From assembly GCA_963842855.1 (NCBI GenBank), contig CAWJHW010000002.1:203187-267186 (forward strand): a DNA stretch of 64,000 nucleotides, written 5' to 3'. The notes below the pieces were generated by a model. The model did no database searches. It worked only from the letters and a program-made list of their open reading frames with translations, and was not told the origin of the DNA. Source of the stretch: an uncultured Methylomirabilota bacterium (GTDB lineage Bacteria; Methylomirabilota; Methylomirabilia; Methylomirabilales; 2-02-FULL-66-22). Both the position numbers and the translations under genes were made by a program. Below, piece after piece: positions 2,300 to 62,882 of this stretch (the first letter of the stretch is position 1; each line of letters opens with the position of its first letter).

Positions 2300-3626
2300 G
2301 TGATGAGCCAAGAGCTCTTCCCCCGCGAATCTCCGCCGCCCCGAAAGGCAGCGCCCCTGGCCGACCGGATGCGTCCCCGCACGCTGGAGGAGTTCGTCGG
2401 CCAGGCGCATCTTCTGGGCGAGGGGAAGGTGCTCCGCGTGGCCCTGGAGCAGGGGGAGGTCCCATCCTTGATCCTCTGGGGGCCGCCCGGCACGGGCAAG
2501 ACGTCCCTGGCCATGCTCATCGCCAGTCGCGTGAAGGCGGCCTTCACGCCGTTCTCTGCGGTCAGCTCGGGCATCAAGGAGATCAAAGAGGTCATCGGCG
2601 AGGCGGATCGAAGGCTGCGCGGCGCGGGCCAGCGCACCATCCTCTTCGTGGACGAGATCCACCGCTTCAACAAGGCCCAGCAAGACGCCTTCCTCCCCCA
2701 CGTCGAGCGCGGCACCATCACCCTGATCGGCGCCACCACCGAGAACCCTTCCTTCGAGGTGATCGCGCCGCTGCTCTCCCGGGCCAAGGTCGTGGTGCTG
2801 CACCCGCTGTCCGAGGCCGACATCCGGCTGATCGTGGACCGCGCCCTTACGGACACCGAGCGGGGATTGGGGAAGAGCCGGCCTGCAAGTGCCCGAGGAC
2901 GCCCTGGCCGCCATCACCGGCTGGGCCAACGGGGACGCGCGCGCCGCCCTGAATCTCCTGGACCTCTCGGCCCGGCTGGCCCGGGCCTCGGATCAGCCGC
3001 GTGTCATCAGCTTGGCCATCGTCCAGGAAGCGGCGCAGAAGCGGAGCCTCCTCTACGACAAGGCAGGCGAGGAGCATTACAATCTCATCTCGGCCCTGCA
3101 CAAAAGCCTGCGGGGCAGCAATCCCGACGCGGCCCTGTACTGGCTGGCGCGCATGCTGGCCTCGGGCGAGGACCCGCTCTACATCGCCCGGCGCCTGGTC
3201 CGCTTTGCTTCCGAGGACATCGGCAACGCCGATCCATCCGCGCTCTCGTTGGCCGTCGCGGCCAAAGAGGCCTACCACTTTCTGGGGACCCCGGAGGGGG
3301 AGTTGGCTCTGGCCCAGTGCGTGACCTACCTGGCCACGGCGCCCAAGAGTAACGCCGTGTATGCCGCCTTTGGCGAGGCGCAGGCCGACGTGGCTTCCGC
3401 CCCGGCCGAGCCGGTGCCGCTCCACATCCGGAACGCCCCAACCCGATTGATGAAGGAGCTGGGCTACGGCGAGGGCTACAAGTACGCCCACGACTACGAG
3501 GGGGCCTACGCGGAACAGGACTACCTGCCCGAGAGCCTCCGGGGCCGCGTGTACTACCGGCCCACCGACCGAGGCTTGGAGGCGGAGATCCGGAAACGCC
3601 TGGCTGCGTGGCGCCGCCGGACGTGA
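2300..3626 (+). pseudogene. rarA: replication-associated recombination protein A (RarA/MgsA AAA+ ATPase), interrupted by an apparent 1-nt frameshift near 2878
   Basis: The N-terminal half (Walker [10 protein letters not shown], Walker [12 protein letters not shown]) is in frame 2. The C-terminal half ([49 protein letters not shown]) is in frame 3. The total length of 1327 nt is 3n+1. Confidence 0.8.
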
Positions 3627-4362: not shown

Positions 4363-4409
4363 GAGAGCCCTGGGAAGGCGCATTCCCAGGGCTCTCGTGT
4401 TTTTCTTTG
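4363..4409. terminator. bidirectional rho-independent terminator between HU (+) and ltaE (-)
   Basis: Stem agagccctggga/tcccagggctct with loop aggcgcat, followed by gtgtttttcttt on the + strand and preceded by an A-run (T-run on the - strand). Confidence 0.7.
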
Positions 4410-6049: not shown

Positions 6050-6107
6050 CTGGCAACCTGGCAACTTGGATTCCCTGATTGCCCGGTTGCCTGATTGCCA
6101 GATTGCC
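6050..6107. repeat. tandem-word hairpin element (GGCAAnnn / nnnTTGCC words)
   Basis: Left arm ctggcaacctggcaacttgg, right arm tgattgcccggttgcctgattgccagattgcc. Occupies the whole thiE-NYN spacer and abuts the thiE stop codon. Confidence 0.8.
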
Positions 6108-6784
6108 TAGCCGCCTCGCCGCGCAGCGGCGACGGCGGCGAGGAGCTCGGCGGCGGCTGCGCCAGGGTCCGATACGGCCATCACTGCGGAGATCACGCCG
6201 ACGCCATCGGCACCCGCCGCCATCACATCGGGAATCCGTACGGCGTTGATGCCCCCGATCGCCAGGATCGGAAGGGATGTGATCGCCCGCGCCTGCCGCA
6301 CGATCTCCGTCGTCAGCGGAGGGCCAAACGGAGCTTTCGACGGCGTCTCGAAGATGGGCCCGAGCACGACGAAATCCGCGCCGCCCTCCTCCGCTTCTCG
6401 AACCTCTGCCGGGGAATGGCACGAGACGCCGACGAGTTTGCCGGCTCCCAAGAGATCGCGGGCCTCCCTGGGGGGGAGGCTTCGCCGCGTGAGCTGGACC
6501 CCGTCGGCCGAGAGGGCCAAGGCCACGTCCACCCGATCGTTGACGAGCAACGCCGCGCCGGCCGCCCGAGTCATGGCGAGAACTTTTCCTGCGACATGGT
6601 ACAGGTCCCGGGTGGGAAGATCCTTCTCCCGGAGCTGGACCGCGCGCACTCCGGCCCGGAGGGCCTGCCCCACGACGGTGAGGAGATCGCGGTCACCTAC
6701 CTGGTGCCGATCGGTCACGAGGTACAGGCCCCACTTCCGTGGATTTCGAAATTCGAAATTCGAAATTCGAAATGGGGATTCCAC
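6107..6784 (-). CDS. thiE: thiamine-phosphate synthase
   Basis: LYLVTD, VQLREKD, VNDRVD, GVSCH, GPIF.T.SK and ILAIGGI motifs. The only in-frame start upstream of LYLVTD is GTG at 6784, so the N-terminus is encoded by a repeat; the start is uncertain. Confidence 0.85.
   Translation of the reverse strand: MESPFRISNFEFRNPRKWGLYLVTDRHQVGDRDLLTVVGQALRAGVRAVQLREKDLPTRDLYHVAGKVLAMTRAAGAALLVNDRVDVALALSADGVQLTRRSLPPREARDLLGAGKLVGVSCHSPAEVREAEEGGADFVVLGPIFETPSKAPFGPPLTTEIVRQARAITSLPILAIGGINAVRIPDVMAAGADGVGVISAVMAVSDPGAAAAELLAAVAAARRGG
6743..6773. repeat. self-complementary tandem heptamer array (ATTCGAA x4)
   Basis: atttcgaa attcgaa attcgaa attcgaa at, located at the thiG/thiE junction. Confidence 0.8.
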
Positions 6785-7897: not shown

Positions 7898-7925
7898 CCT
7901 CTCGGCTCTAGGCTCTCGGCTCTCC
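7898..7925. repeat. one-armed tandem-word element (CTCGGCT / GAGAGCC words)
   Basis: cctctcggctctaggctctcggctctcc, in the nudix-thiS spacer. Confidence 0.6.
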
Positions 7926-8379: not shown

Positions 8380-8452
8380 AGAGCCTAGAGTCGAGAGCCG
8401 CGAGCCGAGACCGGAGGACCCCTCGGCTCTCGGTTCTAGGCTCTCGGCTCTC
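8380..8452. repeat. tandem-word hairpin element (GAGAGCC / GGCTCTC words)
   Basis: Left arm gagcctagagtcgagagccgcgagccgaga, loop ccggaggaccc, right arm ctcggctctcggttctaggctctcggctctc. Confidence 0.8.
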
Positions 8453-8491: not shown

Positions 8492-8507
8492 CATTCGCGT
8501 TGCGTGC

Positions 8508-8599
8508 CCGCTTTCCTACGCCGGCATTACCCGGGTCAGGTTCGGAGGGTTGCGCCGTCCAAACAGACGGCGACTCTCAGCGCGCGCTCCCCTAGCGGT
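8508..8599 (-). promoter_or_regulatory. TPP (THI-element) riboswitch aptamer
   Basis: The minus strand reads ACCGCUAGGGGAGCGCGCGCUGAGAGUCGCCGUCUGUUUGGACGGCGCAACCCUCCGAACCUGACCCGGGUAAUGCCGGCGUAGGAAAGCGG. It contains the hallmark GCUGAGA and ACCC..GAACCUGA.CCGG.UAAU.CCGGCGUAGG blocks plus a closing P1 helix. Confidence 0.85.
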
Positions 8600-8605
8600 A
8601 CTCGC

Positions 8606-8648: not shown

Positions 8649-8690
8649 AATTCTCATTCCGCATTCCACATTCCGAATTCCGCATTTCCG
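8649..8690. repeat. one-armed tandem heptamer array (ATTCCGC words x6)
   Basis: aattctc attccgc attccac attccga attccgc atttccg. Confidence 0.75.
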
Positions 8691-10574: not shown

Positions 10575-10585
10575 CGCCCCCCGGA

Positions 10586-10660
10586 TTTTTGATTGATGAT
10601 TGTGGATTGTTGATTGGCCCTCCGAAAAATCATCAATCGAAAATCACCAATCAACAATCG
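10586..10660. repeat. tandem-word hairpin element (TGATTGn / nCAATCA words)
   Basis: Left arm tttttgattgatgattgtggattgttgattgg, right arm aaaaatcatcaatcgaaaatcaccaatcaacaatcg. Ends 1 nt before the ppx start codon. Confidence 0.8.
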
Positions 10661-14742: not shown

Positions 14743-16136
14743 AGATACGCGATCCGTGGGCCGCGATACGTGGCAGGCTTCGCATGCTCCGCGACTCCTT
14801 CCGCTACACGCGACACGTTTCACGTTTCACGTGCGTGTTCCTGGCCGCGGCTCTGGGGGCGCTCCTGCCGCCGGTTGCGAGCGCGCAGGCGCCGACCGCC
14901 AGCCTCACCCCGGACAAGGGGCCGACCGTCGGGGGCACGAGGGTGCTCATCGAGATCGACGAGGGCTTGACGCTGGGTTCCGTCCGGGTCGAGTTCGGCG
15001 GTCGGCCCGTCCGCGTGGTCCGCGGCCTCGGCCTCTCGATCGTGGAGGTGATCACCCCGCCAGGAAATCCCGGACCGATTCCCGTCCGCGTGACGTACGG
15101 ACTCTTGATGAAGACTGCGGCCTCGGCCGTCTTCACGTACGTGTCCCCGGCCCCACGCCTGGCCCGACTGGACCCGTCCACGGTCCAGGCCGGATCGGCC
15201 GAGCTCCCCCTCTCGGTGGAGGGCGAAGATTTCACGCCGACTTGCAGCCTGCGCGTCGGAGACACCCTGGTGCCCGCCACGGTCCTGAGCCCGCAGCGCC
15301 TGCAGGTCCGCATCCCGGCCCCCCTCCTGGCCAGAGCCGGTAGCCTGGAGGTGCGGCTGACCGACTCCGCCATGGGGGGCGGCGCGTCCAACGTCATGCC
15401 CCTCGCCGTGGTCAATCCCCCACCCCAGTTGACGGCCGTGGAGGCGCCGCCGCTCAGGGTGGGCGGGCCTGCTGCTGGACCGGTCACGCTGACCGCGCGC
15501 GGCCGCGCATTCCGCCCGGAATCCGTCATCCAGCTCGCAGGCGCCGCCGCAGCAACGCAGTACCGCTCGGACCAGGAGTTGACGGCCGTCATCCCGCCGG
15601 AGCTGCTGGCCAAGCCGGGGGAATTGCCGGTCGTCGTGGTGACCCCCGGCCCCGGCGGGGGGACATCCCGGTCCCTGAGCCTTTCGGTCGTGGCCCCGTT
15701 TCCGGGCCGCTTTCTGGTCTTCACGTCCAACCGACAGGGCGGCCGGAACCACATCTACCTCTTGGACCGTCAGACCGGGCATCTGGACCCGTTGGAGGAA
15801 GCCAACAGCAGCCACGGCACCGACGACTCTCCCTCCATCACCGCCGACGGCCGCCTCATCGTGTTCCAGTCGGACCGCCGCGACGGTCAGTTCCACATCT
15901 TTCTCTTCGATCGGGAAACCCGCCGCCTGGATCCGCTGTCGGAGCTGAATCACCCCACTGCCTTCGACGGTTTCCCGCACATCAGTCCCGACGGCCGCTT
16001 CATTGTGTTCGAATCGGATCGCCTGAACGGGCGACCGAAGATCTTTCTGTTCGATCGGCAGACGCAGAGGCTCTCGGAGCTCCACCAGGCGAACGAGGCC
16101 ACGGCCGACGACGGCCTCGCAGCCATCAGCAACTGA
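14739..16136 (+). CDS. secreted protein with IPT/TIG-like repeats and a TolB-like (PD40) beta-propeller
   Basis: Signal peptide, then repeated P.I..L.P....AG...L.V.G..F modules, then four repeats of DG..IVF.S.R......I.L.D. The ATG overlaps the uvrB stop (ATGA); ATG 14784 is an alternative start. Confidence 0.7.
14811..14838. repeat. short tandem-word element (CACGTTT words)
   Basis: cacgttt cacgttt cacgtgc within the first 35 codons of the IPT/PD40 ORF. Confidence 0.5.
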
Positions 16137-16686: not shown

Positions 16687-19581
16687 ATGGAGAGGAAGCT
16701 GTCTCATATGAGAGAGTCCGCATCCCGAGCCGCCCTGCGCCTGGCTCTCCTGTTCGTCCTCATCTCGGGCCTGTGGGTTCTTTTTTCCGACCTGCTGGTC
16801 AGCTACCCCACCACCGATCCCGCCCTCCTCACGCGGATGCAAACCGTGAAGGGTGGAGCGTTCATCGCCGCCACGGGCGTCCTGCTGTTTCTCCTGTTTC
16901 GTCGGGAGCTCCGGAATCTCGAACGGCGCGATACGCAGATCCGTGACATCGAGCAACATCTGCGCCTGCAGAGCGCGGCGCTGGAATCGGCCGCGAATGC
17001 CGTCGTCATCACCGACCGGGAGGGCCGCATCACCTGGGTCAACCCGGCCTTCACCCGCCTGACCGGCTACACCGCCGCAGAGGCCATCGGCAAAAATCCC
17101 CGCCTCCTCAAGTCCGACAGGCACGATGCGGCCTTCTACCGGACGCTCTGGGAAACCATCCTCTGCGGCCGGGTGTGGCGCGGCGAGCTTGTCAATCGCC
17201 GGAAGGACGGATCGCTATACCTCGAGGAGCAAACCATCACGCCGGTGCTGGACGCGGGCGGGGCCATCAGCCACTTCATTGGCATCAAGCAGGACATCAG
17301 CGAGCGCAAGCAGGCCGAGGGGGCGCTGCGGGAAAGCGAGGAGAAATTCCGGAGCCTCGTCGAGAGCACCAGCGACTGGGTCTGGGAGATCGACGAGAGG
17401 AATCGGTACACCTACGTCAGCCCAAGGATCCGCGACATCCTGGGCTATGCACCCGAAGAAGTGCTGGGCAAGACCCCCTTCGACCTCATGCCCGCAGAGG
17501 AGGCCAGGCGGGCGGCCGAAGCCTTCGCCCCCATCACGGGCCAGATGCGGCCCTTCTTGCTCTTCGATAATGTGAACCTCCACAAGGATGGCCACCGGGT
17601 CGTTCTGGAGACCAGCGGGACGCCGATCTTCGACTCCCAGGGGGTGCTCCGTGGGTATCGCGGGATCGATCGGGATATCACCGAGCGCAAGCGGGCGGAG
17701 GAGGAGCTGCGGGCCCGCACCCAGCAGCTCGAAGCGGTCCGGGCCGTCAGCGCAGAGATCACCCACGAGTTGGATCTCAGGAATCTCCTCCAGCTCGTGG
17801 ACCGGCGCGCGGCGGAGTTGGTGGGGGCCGAGCGGGGGGCCATCCTCCTCTGGGACGAAGCACACCAGCGCCTGGTCCCCCAGGCCTGGCACGGGTACGG
17901 CCCCTGGGTGGGCGACGTCCGTCCCCGGCTGGGTGAAGGGGTGGCCGGCCTCGTCGGGGAGCGGCGGGAAGGGCTGATCGTCAACGATTACCGCAATTCC
18001 CCGCACGCCCACCCGCTCTTCCTGGAGCGTTCCCTGGATGCCGCCGTCCTGTGCGAGCCGCTGCTCTACCGGGATCGCCTCCTGGGGGTGATCCTCCTCG
18101 CCGGCTCGCCGAGCCATCGCCAGTTCTCCAGCGAGGACCAACAGTTGCTCCGCCTCTTCGCCGTCCAGGCAGCCATCGCCATCGAGAACGCTCGGCTGCA
18201 TTCTGCGGCCCTACGCCGCGGGGAGGAACTCGAGGCGCTCCTGCGGGCGACGCGCGCGGTCATGTCCGACCTGGATCTCCAGAGCATCCTGGAGCGGATC
18301 GTGGCCGAGGCCTCCCAGATGACCGGGACCCCGCACGTGACAGTCATGTTGGTGGACAGGGCGGCGAAGGTCCTCCGGGTGGCGGCGCTGATCGGCGACC
18401 CCGTGCCAACGGACTTTGCCATTCCCCTGGGGCAGGACCTGTCGGGCCTCGTGGCGGAGACCGGGCAGCCGTTTTTCAGCGCCGACTCGCCCAACGACCC
18501 CCGCAACCTACTCGCGGCGCGGGATAGGGAGCGCGGCTTTGTCACGTACCTCGGCCTCCCGATCAGGGTCCGGGACGAGGTGCTCGGGGTGCTCACCTTC
18601 GATACGACGACGCCCCGCCGCTACACCCCCGACGAGGTGGCCTACCTGGAGTCGTTCGCCGCCCAGGCCGCCATCGCCATGGAAAAGGCCCGGCTCTACC
18701 AGGAGATCCGCCGGCACGCCGCCACGCTGGAGCAGCGCGTCCGGGATCGCACCCGCGAATTCGAGGAGGCGCGCGCTCAAGCCGAGGGGGCCTCCCGCCA
18801 CAAGTCAGACCTCCTGGCCAACATGTCCCACGAATTGCGGACCCCGCTGAACTCGATCATCGGATTCTCGCAACTCCTCCGGGACCAATACGCGGGCCCC
18901 CTGAGCGAGAAGCAGGTCCGGTACCTCGGGCACATCCACTCCGCGGGCATGCATCTTTTCGAGCTCATCAGCGACATCCTGGACCTCGCCAAGGTGGAGG
19001 CGGGCAAACTCATCCCTCGGTGCGAGGCCTTGCCGGTTGCCGCCACCCTGGAGGACATCTGCGCCATCGCCGATGCGCTCGCCCGCGAAAAGAGCCAGAC
19101 GCTGGAATTCCAGGTTGCGCCCGCCCTTCCGCCCCTCCAAGCTGACCCCGTTCGCTTCAAGCAGATCTGCCTGAACCTGTTGAGCAACGCGGTCAAGTTC
19201 ACCCCGAACGGCGGGCGGATCACGCTCACGGCCCGCCGCGTGGCGCGGCAGTCAGGCGACCTGGCAACCAGGCAATCTGGAGCCTCCCCTGATCGCCCGA
19301 TTGCCCAGGTGCCTGAGTGCCAGGCGGGAGCGGAGTGGCTCGAGATCCGGGTGCAAGATACGGGAATCGGAATCAAGGCCGAGGACCTGCCTCGTCTCTT
19401 CCAGGAGTTCACCCAACTCGAGCAGGCGGCGACCAGAGAGCACAAAGGGACTGGCCTCGGTCTCGCCCTGACCAAGCGGCTGGTCGAGCTTCACGGGGGG
19501 CGGATCTGGGCCGAGTCCGAAGGGGAGAGCCGGGGGAGCGCTTTTATTGTTCTCCTGCCGTTCGAGGGGCCGGCCGCCTGA
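16687..19581 (+). CDS. multi-sensor histidine kinase (TM, PAS x2, GAF x2, HisKA, HATPase_c)
   Basis: H-box SHELRTPLNSI, N-box LLSNAVKFT, G1 DTGIGI, G2 GTGLGLAL; repeated PAS (DITERK) and GAF segments. Confidence 0.9.
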   Translation: MERKLSHMRESASRAALRLALLFVLISGLWVLFSDLLVSYPTTDPALLTRMQTVKGGAFIAATGVLLFLLFRRELRNLERRDTQIRDIEQHLRLQSAALESAANAVVITDREGRITWVNPAFTRLTGYTAAEAIGKNPRLLKSDRHDAAFYRTLWETILCGRVWRGELVNRRKDGSLYLEEQTITPVLDAGGAISHFIGIKQDISERKQAEGALRESEEKFRSLVESTSDWVWEIDERNRYTYVSPRIRDILGYAPEEVLGKTPFDLMPAEEARRAAEAFAPITGQMRPFLLFDNVNLHKDGHRVVLETSGTPIFDSQGVLRGYRGIDRDITERKRAEEELRARTQQLEAVRAVSAEITHELDLRNLLQLVDRRAAELVGAERGAILLWDEAHQRLVPQAWHGYGPWVGDVRPRLGEGVAGLVGERREGLIVNDYRNSPHAHPLFLERSLDAAVLCEPLLYRDRLLGVILLAGSPSHRQFSSEDQQLLRLFAVQAAIAIENARLHSAALRRGEELEALLRATRAVMSDLDLQSILERIVAEASQMTGTPHVTVMLVDRAAKVLRVAALIGDPVPTDFAIPLGQDLSGLVAETGQPFFSADSPNDPRNLLAARDRERGFVTYLGLPIRVRDEVLGVLTFDTTTPRRYTPDEVAYLESFAAQAAIAMEKARLYQEIRRHAATLEQRVRDRTREFEEARAQAEGASRHKSDLLANMSHELRTPLNSIIGFSQLLRDQYAGPLSEKQVRYLGHIHSAGMHLFELISDILDLAKVEAGKLIPRCEALPVAATLEDICAIADALAREKSQTLEFQVAPALPPLQADPVRFKQICLNLLSNAVKFTPNGGRITLTARRVARQSGDLATRQSGASPDRPIAQVPECQAGAEWLEIRVQDTGIGIKAEDLPRLFQEFTQLEQAATREHKGTGLGLALTKRLVELHGGRIWAESEGESRGSAFIVLLPFEGPAA
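19247..19324. repeat. GGCAA-type tandem-word hairpin inserted in frame inside the kinase HATPase_c domain
   Basis: Left arm ggcagtcaggcgacctggcaaccaggcaatctgg, loop agcctcccc, right arm tgatcgcccgattgcccaggtgcctgagtgccagg. Confidence 0.75.
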
Positions 19582-19612
19582 TTGCGGAATGCGAAGTGCG
19601 GAATGCGAAATG
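19582..19612. repeat. one-armed tandem-word element (GCGGAATG words)
   Basis: ttgcggaatgcgaagtgcggaatgcgaaatg, starting 1 nt after the kinase stop codon. Confidence 0.7.
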
Positions 19613-19648: not shown

Positions 19649-19674
19649 CATCACCAATCGAAAATCGTCAATCC
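19649..19674. repeat. one-armed tandem-word element (CAATCn words)
   Basis: catcaccaatcgaaaatcgtcaatcc. Overlaps the rluD stop codon at 19668-19670. Confidence 0.6.
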
Positions 19675-20630: not shown

Positions 20631-20722
20631 CCGTAAAACGTGAAACGTGAGAATGGAAGACCGGACCCGCCCCCTTCACGTTTCACCTTTCACCTTTCAC
20701 GTTTCACGTTTCACGTTTTCCG
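20631..20722. repeat. tandem-word hairpin element (GTGAAAC / GTTTCAC words)
   Basis: Left arm cgtaaaacgtgaaacgtgagaatgg, right arm ttcacgtttcacctttcacctttcacgtttcacgtttcacgttttccg. The right arm contains the lspA stop codon. Confidence 0.8.
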
Positions 20723-21187: not shown

Positions 21188-21211
21188 GACCCGGGTCGCC
21201 GATCACCCCAC

Positions 21212-21281
21212 ATTGGTCGTCGGGAATTGGTCATTGGCCATTGGTCATTAGCCATTGCCCTTCGGTCATTGGTCATTGCGT
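21212..21281. repeat. one-armed array of ten tandem heptamers (ATTGGTC words)
   Basis: attggtc gtcggga attggtc attggcc attggtc attagcc attgccc ttcggtc attggtc attgcgt. Spans the ileS stop codon to near the lspA start. Confidence 0.8.
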
Positions 21282-24165: not shown

Positions 24166-24200
24166 CCGTTGGCACCAACGTTGGTACCCTTGGTACCGGC
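24166..24200. repeat. palindromic word element (TTGGTACC / GGCACCAA)
   Basis: gccgttggcaccaacgttggtacccttggtaccggc with the perfect 10-bp palindrome ccaacgttgg. Lies in the ileS leader. Confidence 0.5.
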
Positions 24201-25537: not shown

Positions 25538-25618
25538 GGCAATTTGGCAACCCGGCAATTCGGCAATCTGGCAGTTCCCAGTTGCCAAGCTGCCCGATTG
25601 CCTGATTGCCGAATCGCC
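25538..25618. repeat. tandem-word hairpin element, archetype (5 x GGCAAnnn then 5 x nnnTTGCC)
   Basis: ggcaattt ggcaaccc ggcaattc ggcaatct ggcagttc / ccagttgcc aagctgcc cgattgcc tgattgcc gaatcgcc. Confidence 0.9.
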
Positions 25619-25694
25619 CGAACCTAGCACAGCCGCCCCTTTCCCTCAAGCGCCCGGATTCCCCCGCAGCACGTCAAACGGGCGGGGAATCGTC

Positions 25695-25724
25695 TTGACA
25701 CGTCGCGCGACGCTTGGGTATAGT
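25695..25724 (+). promoter_or_regulatory. sigma70-type promoter of the aminotransferase-serA unit
   Basis: TTGACA (25695-25700), 18-nt spacer, TATAGT (25719-25724). Confidence 0.5.
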
Positions 25725-31311: not shown

Positions 31312-31393
31312 CAATGCGGGGTGCGGAATTCGGAATGCGGAATGCGAGGTCAAGGGAGCCATTGATTCGTCAATCCGCATTTCGCATTCCACA
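31312..31393. repeat. tandem-word hairpin element (GCGGAAT / ATTCCGC words)
   Basis: Left arm caatgcggggtgcggaattcggaatgcggaatgcgagg, right arm aatccgcatttcgcattccaca. It is the last such element before a 25-kb stretch without them. Confidence 0.8.
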
Positions 31394-34525: not shown

Positions 34526-34601
34526 GACCCGGTAGCTCAACTGGCAGAGTACCGGCCTTTTAAGCCGGGTGTTCTGGGTTCGACTCCCAGCCGGGTCACC
34601 A
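34526..34601 (+). tRNA. tRNA-Lys (anticodon UUU)
   Basis: Manual cloverleaf: acceptor gacccgg/ccgggtc, D arm gctc..gagt, anticodon stem ccggc/gccgg with loop cttttaa, T arm ctggg-ttcgact-cccag, encoded CCA. Confidence 0.95.
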
Positions 34602-35150: not shown

Positions 35151-36488
35151 CAGGATGCGGAAAAACTCGCTCTTTCCCTCTTCCCAATCGGTACTGATCG
35201 AGTATGATGCGCCTCGAGCGATGAACCCAGCAAAGGAGGCGCAGCATGCGAGGGACTGACACCCAGCAGGCGGCGATGTTCAGCTACCTCTCCCCGGAGC
35301 AGCGGGTGCCCCCGGACCATCCGCTCCGGCCGATCCGGGCCATGGCCGAGACGGTCCTGAAGGGGCTCTCCCCGCAGTTTACAAACCTGTACTCCCACAC
35401 CGGCCGCCCCTCGATCCCCCCAGAGAAGCTCCTCCGGGCCCTGCTCCTGCAGGTGCTCTACACCGTGCGGAGCGAGCGACTCCTGATGGAGCAGCTCGAC
35501 TACAACCTCCTCTTCCGCTGGTTCGTCGGCCTGAACCTGGACGACCCGATCTGGGACGTCACCGTCTTCACCAAGAACCGGGAGCGCCTCCTGGAGGGCG
35601 ACATCGCCCAGGCCTTCTTCGACCAGGTCCTTGCCCAGGCGCGGGCCCACGCCCTCCTCTCGGATGAGCATTTCACCGTGGACGGGACCTTGATCGAGGC
35701 CTGGGCGGGCCAGAAGAGCTTCCAGCCCAAGCAGGCCAGCCCCACTCAACCCCCCGACGACCCCGGCAACCCCACCGTGGACTTCCGGGGGGAGCGCCGC
35801 TCCAACGCCACCCACGCCTCGACGACGGACCCCGAGGCCCGGCTCTACAAGAAGGCACAGGGCCGGGAGGCGAAACTCTGCTACCAGGGCCACCTCCTCA
35901 TGGAGAACCGGCATGGCCTGGCGGTGGCGACCCAGACCACCTGTGCCACCGGGATGGCCGAGCGGGAGGCGGCCCTCTACATGACCACGAGCTGCGGCGG
36001 GCGCCGGCGCATCACCGTGGGCGGGGACAAGGCGTACGATACCCAGCCGTTCGTCATCACCTGCCGGACCTTCCGGATCACCCCGCATGTGGCCCAGCGG
36101 AAGGACGCGAGTGCCATCGATCGCCGCACCACCTGCCATCCGGGCTATGCCCTGAGCCAGCGGGCCCGGAAACGGGTCGAGGAGATCTTCGGCTGGCTGA
36201 AGACGGTCGGGGGTCTCCGGAAGACGCGCTACCGGGGCGTGCGACGGGTCGGGTGGATGCTCACCTTTGCCACGGCGGTCTACAACCTGGTTCGCATCCG
36301 GAACCTGGTGGAGGCTCTCGGATGAAGTCCAGCCGGAGGGGCGTGCGGAAGTCGAGCGAGACCCCGAGGAGCCTGCAACCGGGGGTGTGGCCAGCAGTTT
36401 GGTACCCCTTAGGTACTCCATCCGACGTCCCTAGTGTGTTCCGAACATCAGTTGTGACCTTTGAATCAAGTTTTTCCGCAGCCTGCTA
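35148..36488 (+). mobile_element. IS5-family insertion sequence (1341 bp)
   Basis: Terminal inverted repeats tagcaggAtgcggaaaaactCg and tagcaggCtgcggaaaaactTg (20/22), enclosing a single DDE transposase ORF. Confidence 0.85.
35246..36325 (+). CDS. IS5-family DDE transposase
   Basis: N-terminal LL.A.LLQ.LY..S.R.L.E.L.YNLLFRWF.GL block; C-terminal GDKAYD and VE..FGWLK....LR..RYRG. Confidence 0.9.
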   Translation: MRGTDTQQAAMFSYLSPEQRVPPDHPLRPIRAMAETVLKGLSPQFTNLYSHTGRPSIPPEKLLRALLLQVLYTVRSERLLMEQLDYNLLFRWFVGLNLDDPIWDVTVFTKNRERLLEGDIAQAFFDQVLAQARAHALLSDEHFTVDGTLIEAWAGQKSFQPKQASPTQPPDDPGNPTVDFRGERRSNATHASTTDPEARLYKKAQGREAKLCYQGHLLMENRHGLAVATQTTCATGMAEREAALYMTTSCGGRRRITVGGDKAYDTQPFVITCRTFRITPHVAQRKDASAIDRRTTCHPGYALSQRARKRVEEIFGWLKTVGGLRKTRYRGVRRVGWMLTFATAVYNLVRIRNLVEALG

Positions 36489-36789
36489 GGGCTGCTGGTC
36501 CGTAGAAGAGCCTGCCTTTTGAATGAGCTGGCCGCGCCTCTGGGGGCACCGCCCGCCATTCCCGATATCAGGCGTCAGCCTCTTACTACGCAGCGCGGAA
36601 TAATGGCTCCACTGTTCCCCGCGCTGCTTCGTTCGCGGGGAAGGCCCTCGCCCTTGCACGGGACCCGCGGCAAGGGCTCAGCCCTCCCCCCGGACCCTAC
36701 CGAGAGGGGCGGACCGCCGCCCCTCGTCGGACTCTCCCCCGGACTGTGCGGTCCGGGAGGGACTGTCGCCTATTTTGCGCACCGCACAG

Positions 36790-36830
36790 TAAGCCGGCTG
36801 TTCTGGGTTCGACTCCCAGCCGGGTCACCA
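36790..36830 (+). repeat. duplicated 3' half of tRNA-Lys (att-like direct repeat)
   Basis: taagccggCtgttctgggttcgactcccagccgggtcacca is 40/41 identical to 34561-34601. Similarity continues into catcatt beyond the CCA end. Confidence 0.85.
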
Positions 36831-56959: not shown

Positions 56960-57037
56960 GAAAACCGACCACGGACAACCGACAACCGGGCAGCGCCCTT
57001 CCGATTTCAATCGGCCGGCTGTTGGTGGTCGGTGGCC
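56960..57037. repeat. tandem-word hairpin element (CAACCGA / TCGGTTG words)
   Basis: Left arm gaaaaccgaccacggacaaccgacaaccgg, right arm ccggctgttggtggtcggtgg, with an inner mini-hairpin ccgatttcaatcgg. Confidence 0.75.
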
Positions 57038-59553: not shown

Positions 59554-59635
59554 GGGCAATCCGGCAATCGGGCAACTCGGCAAACAGGAAATCCGGGTTC
59601 CTGAGACCTCCAAATCGCCCGATCGCCAGATTGCC
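59554..59635. repeat. tandem-word hairpin element (GGCAAnnn / nnnTCGCC-TTGCC words)
   Basis: Left arm gggcaatccggcaatcgggcaactcggcaaacagg, right arm aaatcgcccgatcgccagattgcc. Abuts the npdG stop codon with the same cagattgccTAG junction seen at thiE. Confidence 0.8.
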
Positions 59636-60347: not shown

Positions 60348-60431
60348 CAATGACCAAATCCCAATGTCCAATGACCAATGCGTTCTCGGTTCCCGTTGGT
60401 CATTGGTCATTCGCCGGTCATTGGTCATTCC
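60348..60431. repeat. tandem-word hairpin element (GACCAAT / ATTGGTC words)
   Basis: Left arm caatgaccaaatcccaatgtccaatgaccaatgcg, right arm gttggtcattggtcattcgccggtcattggtcattcc. The right arm encodes the last codons and stop of cofH. Confidence 0.85.
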
Positions 60432-61597: not shown

Positions 61598-61658
61598 GGA
61601 AAACGGACAACCGCCGGTTCACAATCGGTCGGCTGCCGGTCGTCGGTTATCGGTTCTC
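61598..61658. repeat. tandem-word hairpin element (GGACAAC / TCGGT words)
   Basis: Left arm ggaaaacggacaaccgccggttcacaa, right arm tcggtcggctgccggtcgtcggttatcggttctc. Contains the cofG stop codon. Confidence 0.7.
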
Positions 61659-62882
61659 ACATGCCAAGGACGGTCTCGGCTCGTGGCTCTCGGCTCTCCC
61701 GTCGGGAACCAAGCCATCGCCGTCCGCGGACGCGCGGATGCGCTCGGCCAGCTCGGGAGGCAGGTACTCGCGGCCATACAGGATGTACTCAGGATACACT
61801 GGCAAGCGCTGGCGCAGAAGAAATCCTCGGTCTTCCGTGACCGCCCGCAGGGCCGCGAGGTGCGGCCAGGGGGCCTCCGGATTGATGAAGTCCCGCGTGA
61901 GGGGAGAAACCCCGCCCCAATCGTTGATCCCGGCGTCGAGGAGCCGTCCGAACTCCTGCGTCAGGTTGGGCGGCGCTTGGAGGTTCATGAACGGGCCCAG
62001 GATCAGTCGCGCCACGGCCGTGGTCCGGAGCATGTCTTCCGGCGTGGGCTCCGGCTGGTCGCGCATGGGGATGGTCGGCTTCACCCGGAAGTTCTGGACG
62101 ATGACCTCTTGGATGTGGCCGTACCGCTCGTGCAGGCCCCGAATGGCGAGGAGAGAGTCCACGCGCTCTTCGCCCGTCTCGCCGATGCCGACGAGGATGC
62201 CTGTGGTGAACGGGATCTTCAGCCGGCCGGCCACTTCCATGACGCGAAGACGCACCCGAGGATGCTTCGTCACGGCTCCGTGGTGCGGCCCGCCCGCCAG
62301 GAGCAGGCGGGGGCTCGCCGATTCCAGCATGAGGCCCATGCTCGCGTTCACGGCCCTCAGGGCGCGGAGGTCCGGCTCGCTCATCACCCCCGGATTCGCG
62401 TGGGGAAAGAGGGGCGAGCGGTCGAGCACCAGCCCGCAGGCCGCCCGCAGGTATTCCAGGGTCCGCCGGTAGCCCAACCCCCGCAGGATCGCCCGCGCCC
62501 CGGGAAACACGGCCTCGGGCGCATCCCCCAGGCTGAAGAGCGCCTCGGTGCAGCCGAGCCGGGCCCCTTCCCCCACCACGGCCAGCACCTGCTCCGGCGT
62601 CATGATCCAGCCATCTGGGTCCTCCGGATCCCGCCGGAATGTGCAATACCCGCAACGGTCCCGGCAGAGGTTCGTCAGGGGCAGGAACACCTTGCGGGAG
62701 TACGTGATGGTCTTTCCCTTCCCTCGGTTTCGCAGGGCCGCCGCCGCCGCGAGCAGCGGGTCGAGTGGCGCCGAGGGTTCGAGGAAACGGATCGCCGCCT
62801 CGCGGGAGAGCCCCCGCCCGGCCGCAGCATCATCCAGCGCACCCGTGAGCGACCGATCCCGCACGGAGCCCACAACCATCAT
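61647..62882 (-). CDS. cofG: FO synthase subunit 1 (radical SAM)
   Basis: VF.PLTNLCRDRCGYCTF motif. ATG-ATG start at 62882. The longer ORF to 63521 overlaps the PPIase gene and is not used. Confidence 0.9.
   Translation of the reverse strand: MMVVGSVRDRSLTGALDDAAAGRGLSREAAIRFLEPSAPLDPLLAAAAALRNRGKGKTITYSRKVFLPLTNLCRDRCGYCTFRRDPEDPDGWIMTPEQVLAVVGEGARLGCTEALFSLGDAPEAVFPGARAILRGLGYRRTLEYLRAACGLVLDRSPLFPHANPGVMSEPDLRALRAVNASMGLMLESASPRLLLAGGPHHGAVTKHPRVRLRVMEVAGRLKIPFTTGILVGIGETGEERVDSLLAIRGLHERYGHIQEVIVQNFRVKPTIPMRDQPEPTPEDMLRTTAVARLILGPFMNLQAPPNLTQEFGRLLDAGINDWGGVSPLTRDFINPEAPWPHLAALRAVTEDRGFLLRQRLPVYPEYILYGREYLPPELAERIRASADGDGLVPDGRAESHEPRPSLACENR
61671..61706. repeat. one-armed tandem-word element (CTCGGCT words) inside the cofG 3' end
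   Basis: cggtctcggctcgtggctctcggctctcccgtcggg, which encodes ...PDGRAESHEPRP. Confidence 0.6.

Follow-up and report, generated by a model that had tools for sequence, protein, structure and literature searches.

Tandem-word hairpins at gene ends in a Methylomirabilota genome, a version of the known intergenic heptamer repeats

Described heptamer repeats and the elements of the window

Short words repeated in tandem between genes have been described in several bacterial lineages. Xanthomonas genomes each carry 70-75 convergent pairs of GGGAATC heptamer arrays with stem-loop potential (Rehm et al. 2015, PMC4692102). In Geobacter metallireducens, paired tandem octa-, nona- and heptanucleotide sites have been found (Aklujkar et al. 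2009, PMC2700814), and these were annotated as putative sites for the global regulators IHF/HU with no analysis of their evolution or position. More generally, a survey of 7,006 prokaryotic genomes reports that no other periodic repeat is as abundant in intergenic DNA as heptamers and sees "no clear clue" to what they do (bioRxiv 10.1101/309039). Repeats of the word TAACTGA are known from Beggiatoaceae (PMC4679880), and the removal of heptamer repeats in Nostoc altered reporter output (bioRxiv 10.1101/2022.06.06.494920). Here we analyzed 64 kb of the genome of an uncultured Methylomirabilota bacterium (contig CAWJHW010000002.1; hereafter the window), in which tandem 7-8-nt words and their inverse partners build hairpin elements at many sites, starting from the element at 25538-25618 (the focus element). 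A first-pass annotation of this DNA could not place these elements in any named family; the same construction has in fact been published for Xanthomonas, for G. metallireducens and as widespread intergenic heptamers. The elements are the Methylomirabilota version of these known intergenic heptamer repeats and their architecture is not new. We found no accepted name or mechanism for this repeat class in the literature.

The focus element reads exactly as first proposed, as five tandem words (GGCAAYYN), a short loop and five inverse words (NRRTTGCC). Its fold has an energy of -44.2 kcal/mol (z = -6.0, where z is the folding energy against dinucleotide shuffles), which none of 200 shuffles equaled. 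A strict self-match detector (mismatch -3) returned only four arrays and was too stringent for degenerate words, and Tandem Repeats Finder (TRF) combined with simulations was used instead. TRF identified 21 arrays in the window (period 6-9, at least 2.9 copies; mostly of period 7, otherwise 8), all at sites that had already been listed, against 1.3 on average and at most 4 in 40 second-order Markov simulations of the window. Tandem-word arrays are therefore as pervasive as had been claimed. Clear two-armed hairpins were found at ten loci with z between -2.9 and -6.0 (starting at 6050, 8380, 10584, 19247, 20631, 25538, 31312, 56960, 59554 and 60348), the element at 61598 is a marginal hairpin (z -1.7) and seven single arrays have no partner (6743, 7898, 8649, 14811, 19582, 21211 and 61671). 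Three other listed sites (2255-2297, 19649-19674 and 24166-24200) were too weak to count as elements. At least ten word families coexist in the 64 kb, in agreement with the view of one architecture under ten or more different words. The impression that the elements are less GC-rich than their flanks was also borne out: GC content is 0.26-0.64 at most listed loci relative to 0.67 for the window, and arrays averaged 0.064 below their own locus over all loci compared.

The window encodes housekeeping functions (ileS, lspA, rluD, uvrB, serA, hisZ, a thi operon behind a thiamine pyrophosphate (TPP) riboswitch and an F420 operon) and its nearest genomes are metagenome-assembled genomes of Methylomirabilota (NC10) with IleS identities of 79-86%. 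The same elements were present on contigs of 98.6-99.5% nucleotide identity from JGI, ENA, NCBI (GCA_050011115.1) and Logan assemblies. More than ten independent assemblies of the same species carry them in identical form, which excludes the assembly artefact that had been raised as a concern.

The traits of the Xanthomonas pairs are found in these elements: iterated 7-nt words, mostly intergenic and near the ends of open reading frames (ORFs), convergent pairs with the G-rich array first, and a copy number that varies among related species as the locus and its single or paired type persist, with no known function. In contrast, the Xanthomonas study (PMC4692102) dealt with one word per genome, picked for its G-quadruplex potential, whereas ten or more families occur here and GGG is absent from every word of the window; G3 tracts with G-quadruplex potential are a trait of the GGGAATC subfamily and not of the architecture. 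That study mentions neither anchoring at stop codons, nor words that turn over at a fixed site, nor copies in frame. The sites of G. metallireducens share with the elements the existence of several word classes (GTTGCTYN x4, TCTCCGTS[Y] x3 and MTYCTGA x5), pairs on opposite strands at variable distance, a location within operons (proB-proA) and their absence from a sister species. They differ by the presence of insertion sequence (IS) elements at a fixed distance from the sites (PMC2700814). No such spacing was seen in the window, where the only transposase gene (IS5-like, 35246-36325) and the closest array are more than 3.8 kb apart.

Cyanobacterial short tandemly repeated repetitive (STRR) sequences, the Beggiatoaceae repeats and the surveyed heptamers are likewise contiguous 7-nt intergenic words, found in many phyla beside start or stop codons. 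The word of STRR2, which we take to be TTGGTCA, would equal the ATTGGTC word of the window. STRR-type and related repeats differ in being mostly direct arrays, with few inverted pairs reported in Nostoc, and TAACTGA of Beggiatoaceae sits just upstream of start codons whereas the elements studied here begin at stop codons. The best functional analogy is offered by repetitive extragenic palindromic (REP) sequences, bacterial interspersed mosaic elements (BIMEs) and REPINs, which are abundant extragenic hairpins at cistron 3' ends in operons and also form mosaics. REP/BIME hairpins are involved in mRNA stabilization and affect upstream translation. However, a REP unit is one 20-40-nt palindrome per family with a GTAG/CGTC head and a link to REP-associated tyrosine transposases (RAYTs), whereas a 7-8-nt word is all that is shared here: no GTAG or CTAC was found at any element end. 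No RAYT (Y1 transposase) gene was seen among the ~50 of 57 window proteins that were scanned. We also agree with the first-pass annotation that the elements are neither MITEs (miniature inverted-repeat transposable elements), as copies within a word family have unrelated loops and flanks, nor CRISPR arrays, which have 23-50-nt repeats and not contiguous 7-8-nt units without spacers. The Rfam search that had been suggested returned no family for any element, even at E <= 0.1, the only matches in the window being two tRNAs and the TPP riboswitch. Finally, readings as DnaA boxes, Chi sites, uptake sequences, attC sites or CsrA sites were dropped in view of the many words per genome and the syntenic housekeeping surroundings.

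Arms, gene ends and word turnover

Each element is made of a 5' array of 3-10 G-rich words of 7-8 nt, a spacer and a convergent 3' array of complementary words. The gap between arms spans 1-62 nt (median 24); the two arms differ in copy number and pair in several registers. We detected no mirror symmetry between arms, as permuting the word order of one arm never lowered the best-register match (0/41 pairs, p <= 0.05). This indicates that complementarity stems from the shared consensus word, typically with 5-6 pairs and one mismatch per word. A recent inverted duplication or a position-specific pairing of the arms was ruled out by this same test. The 5' arm contained more G than C in 36 of the 41 pairs and was purine-richer in 30 of them (p = 0.004). 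Because this G-to-C polarity is identical on either strand, the direction in which the DNA is transcribed or replicated cannot by itself be its source. In the GAAGGCA family, the same one-mismatch difference between arms was observed in eight copies from five genomes.

Positions were analyzed relative to stop codons, which are exact, and to gene starts, which are approximate (codon-bias caller). Of the 16 window elements facing a gene 3' end, 12 lie within -14..+10 nt of the stop codon, and the stop codon can be part of the element itself (...CAA TGA CCAATGACC for ileS and ...ACG TGA AACGTG for lspA). A wider NC10-like set yielded 39/65 stop-side distances within -20..+16 nt, with 21 overlapping the stop, and a median distance of 64 nt on the start-codon side. 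Most elements are located inside operons, whose spacers they occupy almost wholly, and junctions of both the thi and the F420 operons are filled in this way. The location at gene boundaries that had been proposed holds for the 13 element-bearing spacers among the 29 of 1-31.4 kb plus 56.9-64 kb; it fails for 19247-19324, which lies in frame inside a histidine-kinase ORF. The focus element, 20 nt upstream of a start codon and flanked by divergent genes, is an exception to stop anchoring. No array was found from 31.4 to 56.9 kb despite 7.8 kb of non-coding DNA (0/18 spacers vs 13/29; Fisher p = 6e-4). Part of this stretch shows lower GC content and an IS5-like transposase beside a tRNA-Lys gene.

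Comparison of sister strains revealed how the arrays change over short times. Over 20.5 kb at 99.5% identity, we counted 96 single-nucleotide polymorphisms, and the only indel removes one 7-nt word from a GTTTCAC array. A further 9 kb contained a 14-nt indel that spans two GGCTCTC words, an 8-nt indel of one octamer word confined to a single arm, and a coding indel of 3 nt. Three of the four sister-strain indels are thus whole-word changes inside arrays. These strains thus give a direct view of slipped-strand mispairing that adds or removes whole words, in each arm on its own, and the slippage half of the "slippage-plus-inversion" origin first suggested for the elements is directly supported.

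Over longer times, the words themselves are replaced. The relatives are available as short contigs with conserved synteny, and 7/8 orthologous junctions have elements in at least two of five related genomes, mostly with unrelated words. The ileS-lspA spacer contains ATTGGTC in the window and in L002, CGTTCAA in L004, the nonamer pair CCACAGATT/AATCTGTGG in L003 and no element in L001. Similarly, the lspA-rluD spacer contains GTGAAAC in the window, L092 and L096, AACGCAAAT in L001, CAGCCGT in L004 and no element in L002 and L003. Genomes with the same word differ in copy number (the window vs L002; the window vs L092 vs L096). We found no target-site duplication, the flanks of filled and empty orthologous junctions being too diverged to show one. 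A different, conventional repeat with the palindrome GGGTACCCAGCGCTAGCGCTGGGT was observed in L002, in the serA-hisZ spacer and upstream of ileS, which indicates that the tandem-word elements are accompanied by further families of small repeats.

Turnover was also traced within a protein-coding gene. Histidine kinases related to the one in the window carry in-frame inserts of 51-201 nt in a loop of the HATPase_c domain (..TLTARRV, insert, EWLEIRVxDTGIGI), with more than ten words across homologues, among them GGCAAYYN, GCGGAAT, GAAGGCA, GGGGAGCAGA, GAACCGG, ATGGTCAA, CGACGAC, GGATTTNG, GGTTCAT, GCAGGAY and GTCCGAG. Most inserts fold as one left-right hairpin (z mostly -1.5 to -6), and the insert of L117 folds no better than shuffles. 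In a tree of the domain built with the insert removed, homologues without insert are basal and there is at least one separate gain. Loop words are clade-specific, and the words of three sister clades (GAAGGCA, GCAGGCA and GCGGGCA) are single-base variants whose partner arms change accordingly. The architecture is thus kept at the nucleic-acid level while both sequence and peptide are replaced. Rickettsia palindromic elements are also tolerated in frame in protein-coding genes; they differ in forming 100-150-nt families with conserved sequence. In-frame repeat DNA giving low-complexity loops is likewise tolerated in genes of Borgs (PMC9879509), as perfect direct repeats whose unit length is a multiple of 3 and not as inverted arms with a 21-nt/7-residue super-period as in L108. 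There, the loop insert has grown to 201 nt and more than 16 heptamers (6340-6533), three words (21 nt) encoding the 7-residue repeat EGRRQKA. Long mosaics of successive blocks of different words were also observed right after histidine-kinase stops (L098 773-3737, L102 5377-5469, L108 9063-9303 and L159 424-500). Their blocks (GTGAAAC, GGGGAGCA, AGGCAGA and GCGGATT) are all purine-rich on the sense strand, and L108 also contains a duplicated composite unit of ~110 nt.

Words are shared well beyond single sites. Five pairs of window loci use an identical word relative to a null mean of 0.16, and the words of 11 pairs are no more than one base apart relative to 1.06. Three GGCTCTC arrays present a common order of variant words with 89-93% identity, and some loci consist of multi-word mosaic blocks. 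The words GTGAAAC, GAAGGCA and GCGGAAT are common to relatives, and a few words recur in Acidobacteriota, Nitrospirota and one gammaproteobacterium. This re-use of words between loci and phyla suggests that local slippage cannot be the whole story and points to copying between loci.

The search was extended to a wider set of 1.83 Mb of loci from many phyla. Period 7 gave 204 arrays where 12 were expected, whereas periods 8, 6, 9 and 5 gave 46, 45, 30 and 8 arrays where 7.7, 7.7, 6.3 and 5.7 were expected, respectively. An inverted partner was present for 108 of the 280 arrays of period 7-9 (39%) vs 4-15 (1-5%) in controls. One Acidobacteriota locus (L052) displays six two-armed elements, each with its own word, which fill successive operon spacers from stop to start. 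The idea that words of 7 nt are favored because they escape mismatch repair was rejected, since period 5 is not enriched. Periods other than multiples of 3 might also be explained by arrays providing stops in all frames, for which only a weak trend was seen (12 vs 4), and again period 5 is not enriched.

Individual elements and neighboring features

The elements of the window are described below without strand unless one was assigned. Four of them belong to the GGCAA family and are two-armed. The focus element (25538..25618; z -6.0), between divergent genes, lies 20 nt upstream of the start of an EamA-type transporter gene and ~75 nt upstream of the -35 box of a conserved promoter of an aminotransferase gene. 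This promoter-like sequence (TTGACA-N17-TATAGT, 25694-25722) is kept in the window, L001, L003 and L004; GGGGAATCGTC stands before it in all of these except L001, which is without that upstream stretch. Its surroundings, including the tandem-word element, are not conserved across the four genomes. The element at 6050..6108 (z -4.3) fills the thiE-yacP spacer and, on its sense (-) strand, opens with TAGGCAATCTGGC, in which TAG is the thiE stop codon. The element at 59554..59635 (z -5.0) fills the npdG-cofD spacer and opens on a TAG stop with the identical 13-mer; sister strains have an extra 8-nt word in its right arm. The fourth element (19247..19324, + strand; z -2.9), in frame in the histidine-kinase ORF, sits in the HATPase_c loop and encodes RQSGDLATRQSGASPDRPIAQVPECQAGA.

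The GAGAGCC/GGCTCTC family comprises a two-armed element of 4.4 + 4.4 words (8380..8452; z -5.6), which separates the TPP riboswitch aptamer from the first gene of the thi operon, and two single GGCTCTC arrays. One of these (7898..7925) is located 1 nt past the stop of the NUDIX gene and shares its variant-word order with the copies at 8428 and 61674 (89-93% identity). The other (61671..61706) lies within the last codons of a radical-SAM (cofG-like) gene. Some sister strains are two words (14 nt) shorter at this position (61647-61706; L171-L176), and this slippage gives C-terminal tails of 416 vs 424 aa. The operon behind the TPP riboswitch (8496-8603, minus strand) is composed of NUDIX, thiS, thiG, thiE, a YacP-like NYN gene and a beta-eliminating lyase gene and ends at a bidirectional terminator (4363-4396). 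The hairpin at 8380-8452 occupies the place expected for an expression platform, from the aptamer to the first start codon.

Words of the GCGGAAT/ATTCCGC type form a two-armed element 6 nt past the stop of the adenylosuccinate synthetase gene (31312..31393; z -4.9), an ATTCCGC-type single array flanked by two divergent promoter-like sites (8649..8690) and a GCGGAAT single array (19582..19612, + strand) that begins right at the 3' side of the histidine-kinase stop codon. A GATTGNN/NNCAATC two-armed element (10584..10660; z -2.9) lies 9 nt past the stop of an NFACT/RqcH-like gene. The lspA-rluD spacer is occupied by a two-armed element with 2.7 GTGAAAC and 6.3 GTTTCAC words (20631..20722; z -4.2); the lspA stop TGA is inside its first word, its arms pair in at least four registers and sister strains are one word shorter. 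A short GTTTCAC array of 2.7 words (14811..14838) is found downstream of uvrB.

The ileS-lspA spacer is filled by a single array of 9.7 degenerate ATTGGTC words (21211..21281) with the ileS stop TGA inside its first word and no hairpin (z -1.0). A GACCAAT/ATTGGTC two-armed element in the cofH-npdG spacer (60348..60431; z -3.3) overlaps the end of the upstream gene, its final codons and stop included. CAACCGA/TCGGTTG words form a two-armed element at 56960..57037 (z -3.3) and a weak one in the cofG-cofH spacer (61598..61658; z -1.7), which overlaps the upstream stop. Finally, a perfect array of 4.1 copies of the self-complementary word TTCGAAA (6743..6773) is located at the thiG/thiE junction.

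Several other features were noted in the window. The tRNA-Lys gene (34526-34601) is followed by the IS5-like DDE transposase gene (35246-36325), and the last 41 nt of the tRNA have a second copy at 36790-36830 (98% identical) that ARAGORN miscalls as tRNA-Asn(att). All sister-strain contigs stop near 33.6 kb, which indicates that a variable region starts there. A non-coding segment of ~212-230 nt abuts this duplicated tRNA-Lys 3' end (36580-36791). It is 97% identical in L108 (2407-2618), whose kinase domain is only 52% identical, and 82% identical at a different locus of L004 (8143-8373); it contains GC-rich internal hairpins and had no Rfam match. This segment may be the end of an integrative element or a structured RNA. 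Finally, a rarA/mgsA-like gene (2300-3626) is split in two frames, with AAA at 2300-3352 and AAA_assoc_2 and MgsA_C at 2889-3626, which means that the gene is a pseudogene with a frameshift or else that the sequence is in error near 2850-2900.

Origin and meaning of the elements

With moderate confidence, we interpret the elements as the near-neutral or selfish product of a lineage-specific repeat-generating process rather than as dedicated regulators. Under this model, slipped-strand mispairing adds whole words to each arm or removes them, whatever happens in the other arm, as seen between sister strains. The word of a site is replaced over time with the arms staying complementary through their consensus, such that the hairpin outlives its sequence, as seen at the orthologous junctions and in the kinase loop. 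Words, and even stretches of variant words, would be copied between loci of one genome, a step suggested by the shared vocabulary. Elements would then survive only where they do little harm, namely at or after stop codons and in permissive protein loops; these are the positions observed, and limited harm is the presumed reason. Once transcribed, the long imperfect stem-loop would be expected to behave by analogy like a REP/BIME-type intercistronic hairpin and not like a terminator.

Several observations weigh against this interpretation. The re-use of words across loci and phyla is impossible by local slippage and calls for a separate copying step. The model does not explain the 17-fold excess of period 7 and the lack of any for period 5, nor does it explain the 5'-G-rich polarity or the systematic one-mismatch asymmetry between the arms of the GAAGGCA family. 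Moreover, both the empty 7.8 kb of non-coding DNA between 31.4 and 56.9 kb and the insert kept throughout a clade of histidine kinases could indicate selection or a targeted process. The REP-like behavior of the RNA is itself an inference.

Alternatively, it is possible, with a lower probability, that the elements are selected at the RNA level, with transcribed hairpins that shield upstream cistrons against 3' exonucleases, define processing sites, keep C-rich RNA out of reach of Rho or adjust how translation terminates and re-initiates at the borders of cistrons. Anchoring at stop codons, filled operon spacers and a constant architecture with changing sequence are consistent with this possibility. 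Stop-adjacent arrays are preferentially purine-rich on the sense strand (31 vs 10) and more often contain stops in all three frames than the antisense control (12 vs 4), a comparison that is partly circular, as arrays overlapping a stop contain one. The trend is weaker for unpaired arrays between co-directional genes (25 vs 11 purine-rich on the sense strand, p 0.03). With the G-rich arm first, the C-rich arm would presumably never be single-stranded in the nascent transcript. However, a test of G.U wobble pairs and strand energy revealed neither an excess of G.U pairs nor a lower folding energy on the sense strand: histidine-kinase inserts presented 29 vs 41 G.U pairs, and the sense strand was more stable in just 7/20 inserts, which lends RNA-level selection no support. 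Base pairs are not conserved position by position, close relatives can be without an element at the same junction with no visible replacement, and some elements lie in divergent promoter regions or inside an ORF.

We consider it rather unlikely that the elements are non-autonomous mobile DNA, in which word families would be MITE- or REPIN-like and the arms would be arrays of binding sites for a transposase encoded elsewhere. The re-use of words between loci, the three copies with a common variant-word order, the arm asymmetry constant over eight copies from five genomes, the multi-word mosaic blocks and the differences among species in element presence at the same junctions all argue for mobility, as do the IS elements at fixed distances from the Geobacter sites (PMC2700814). 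On the other hand, the elements have no conserved termini, internal sequence or discrete length, words alone being shared, and no target-site duplication was found, with the limit set by the diverged flanks. Sister strains vary only in the number of words and never in presence or absence, the words of the histidine-kinase loop follow the protein tree, which fits evolution in place, and the sole transposase gene of the window is far from any array.

Equally doubtful is a system that copies and writes words: a trans-acting enzyme with a genome-specific vocabulary of 7-8 nt would install arrays, G-rich arm first, at stop codons, existing hairpins and permissive loops. Such an enzyme could resemble a transposase or a recombinase, or it could copy a short template again and again as a polymerase or reverse transcriptase. 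If true, this would account for the words shared across loci and phyla, the switching of words, the conserved arm asymmetry and the dominance of period 7.

It is less likely still that the elements are arrays of sites for word-specific DNA- or RNA-binding proteins, as guessed for Geobacter with IHF/HU and as proposed for a partner in Nostoc. Words combine a conserved core with variable spacer positions (GGCAA+YYN), arms share a consensus word and not mirror symmetry, the vocabulary is conserved across related genomes and the Nostoc reporter changed on heptamer removal (bioRxiv 10.1101/2022.06.06.494920), all of which would fit binding sites. However, ten or more word families occur within 64 kb, words are replaced at orthologous junctions that flank housekeeping genes, one element is inside a coding loop, and contiguous sites of 7-8 bp face different sides of the DNA helix.

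Ordinary intrinsic terminators and assembly artefacts are both refuted: hairpins do lie at gene ends and the only canonical terminator found in a scan of 4-24 kb (4363-4396) has one GAGAGCC word in its stem, but most elements are inside operons, none of the 11 hairpins is followed by a U-tract in the direction of transcription, a lack that the first-pass annotation had noted for most elements, none was caught by the terminator scan, and the independent assemblies agree.

Our near-neutral or selfish interpretation and its alternatives face the same constraints. Stop anchoring, fixed polarity, whole-word slippage and a shared vocabulary constrain any mechanism for heptamer repeats, which makes this puzzle testable. 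The histidine-kinase loop constitutes a natural covariation experiment, in which the hairpin was retained and its words were fully replaced. In practice, the elements shift the ends of genes, through changed C-terminal tails and stops inside arrays, and mislead the calling of start codons. They are likely to be mistaken for terminators or small RNAs in the genomes of high-GC uncultured phyla.

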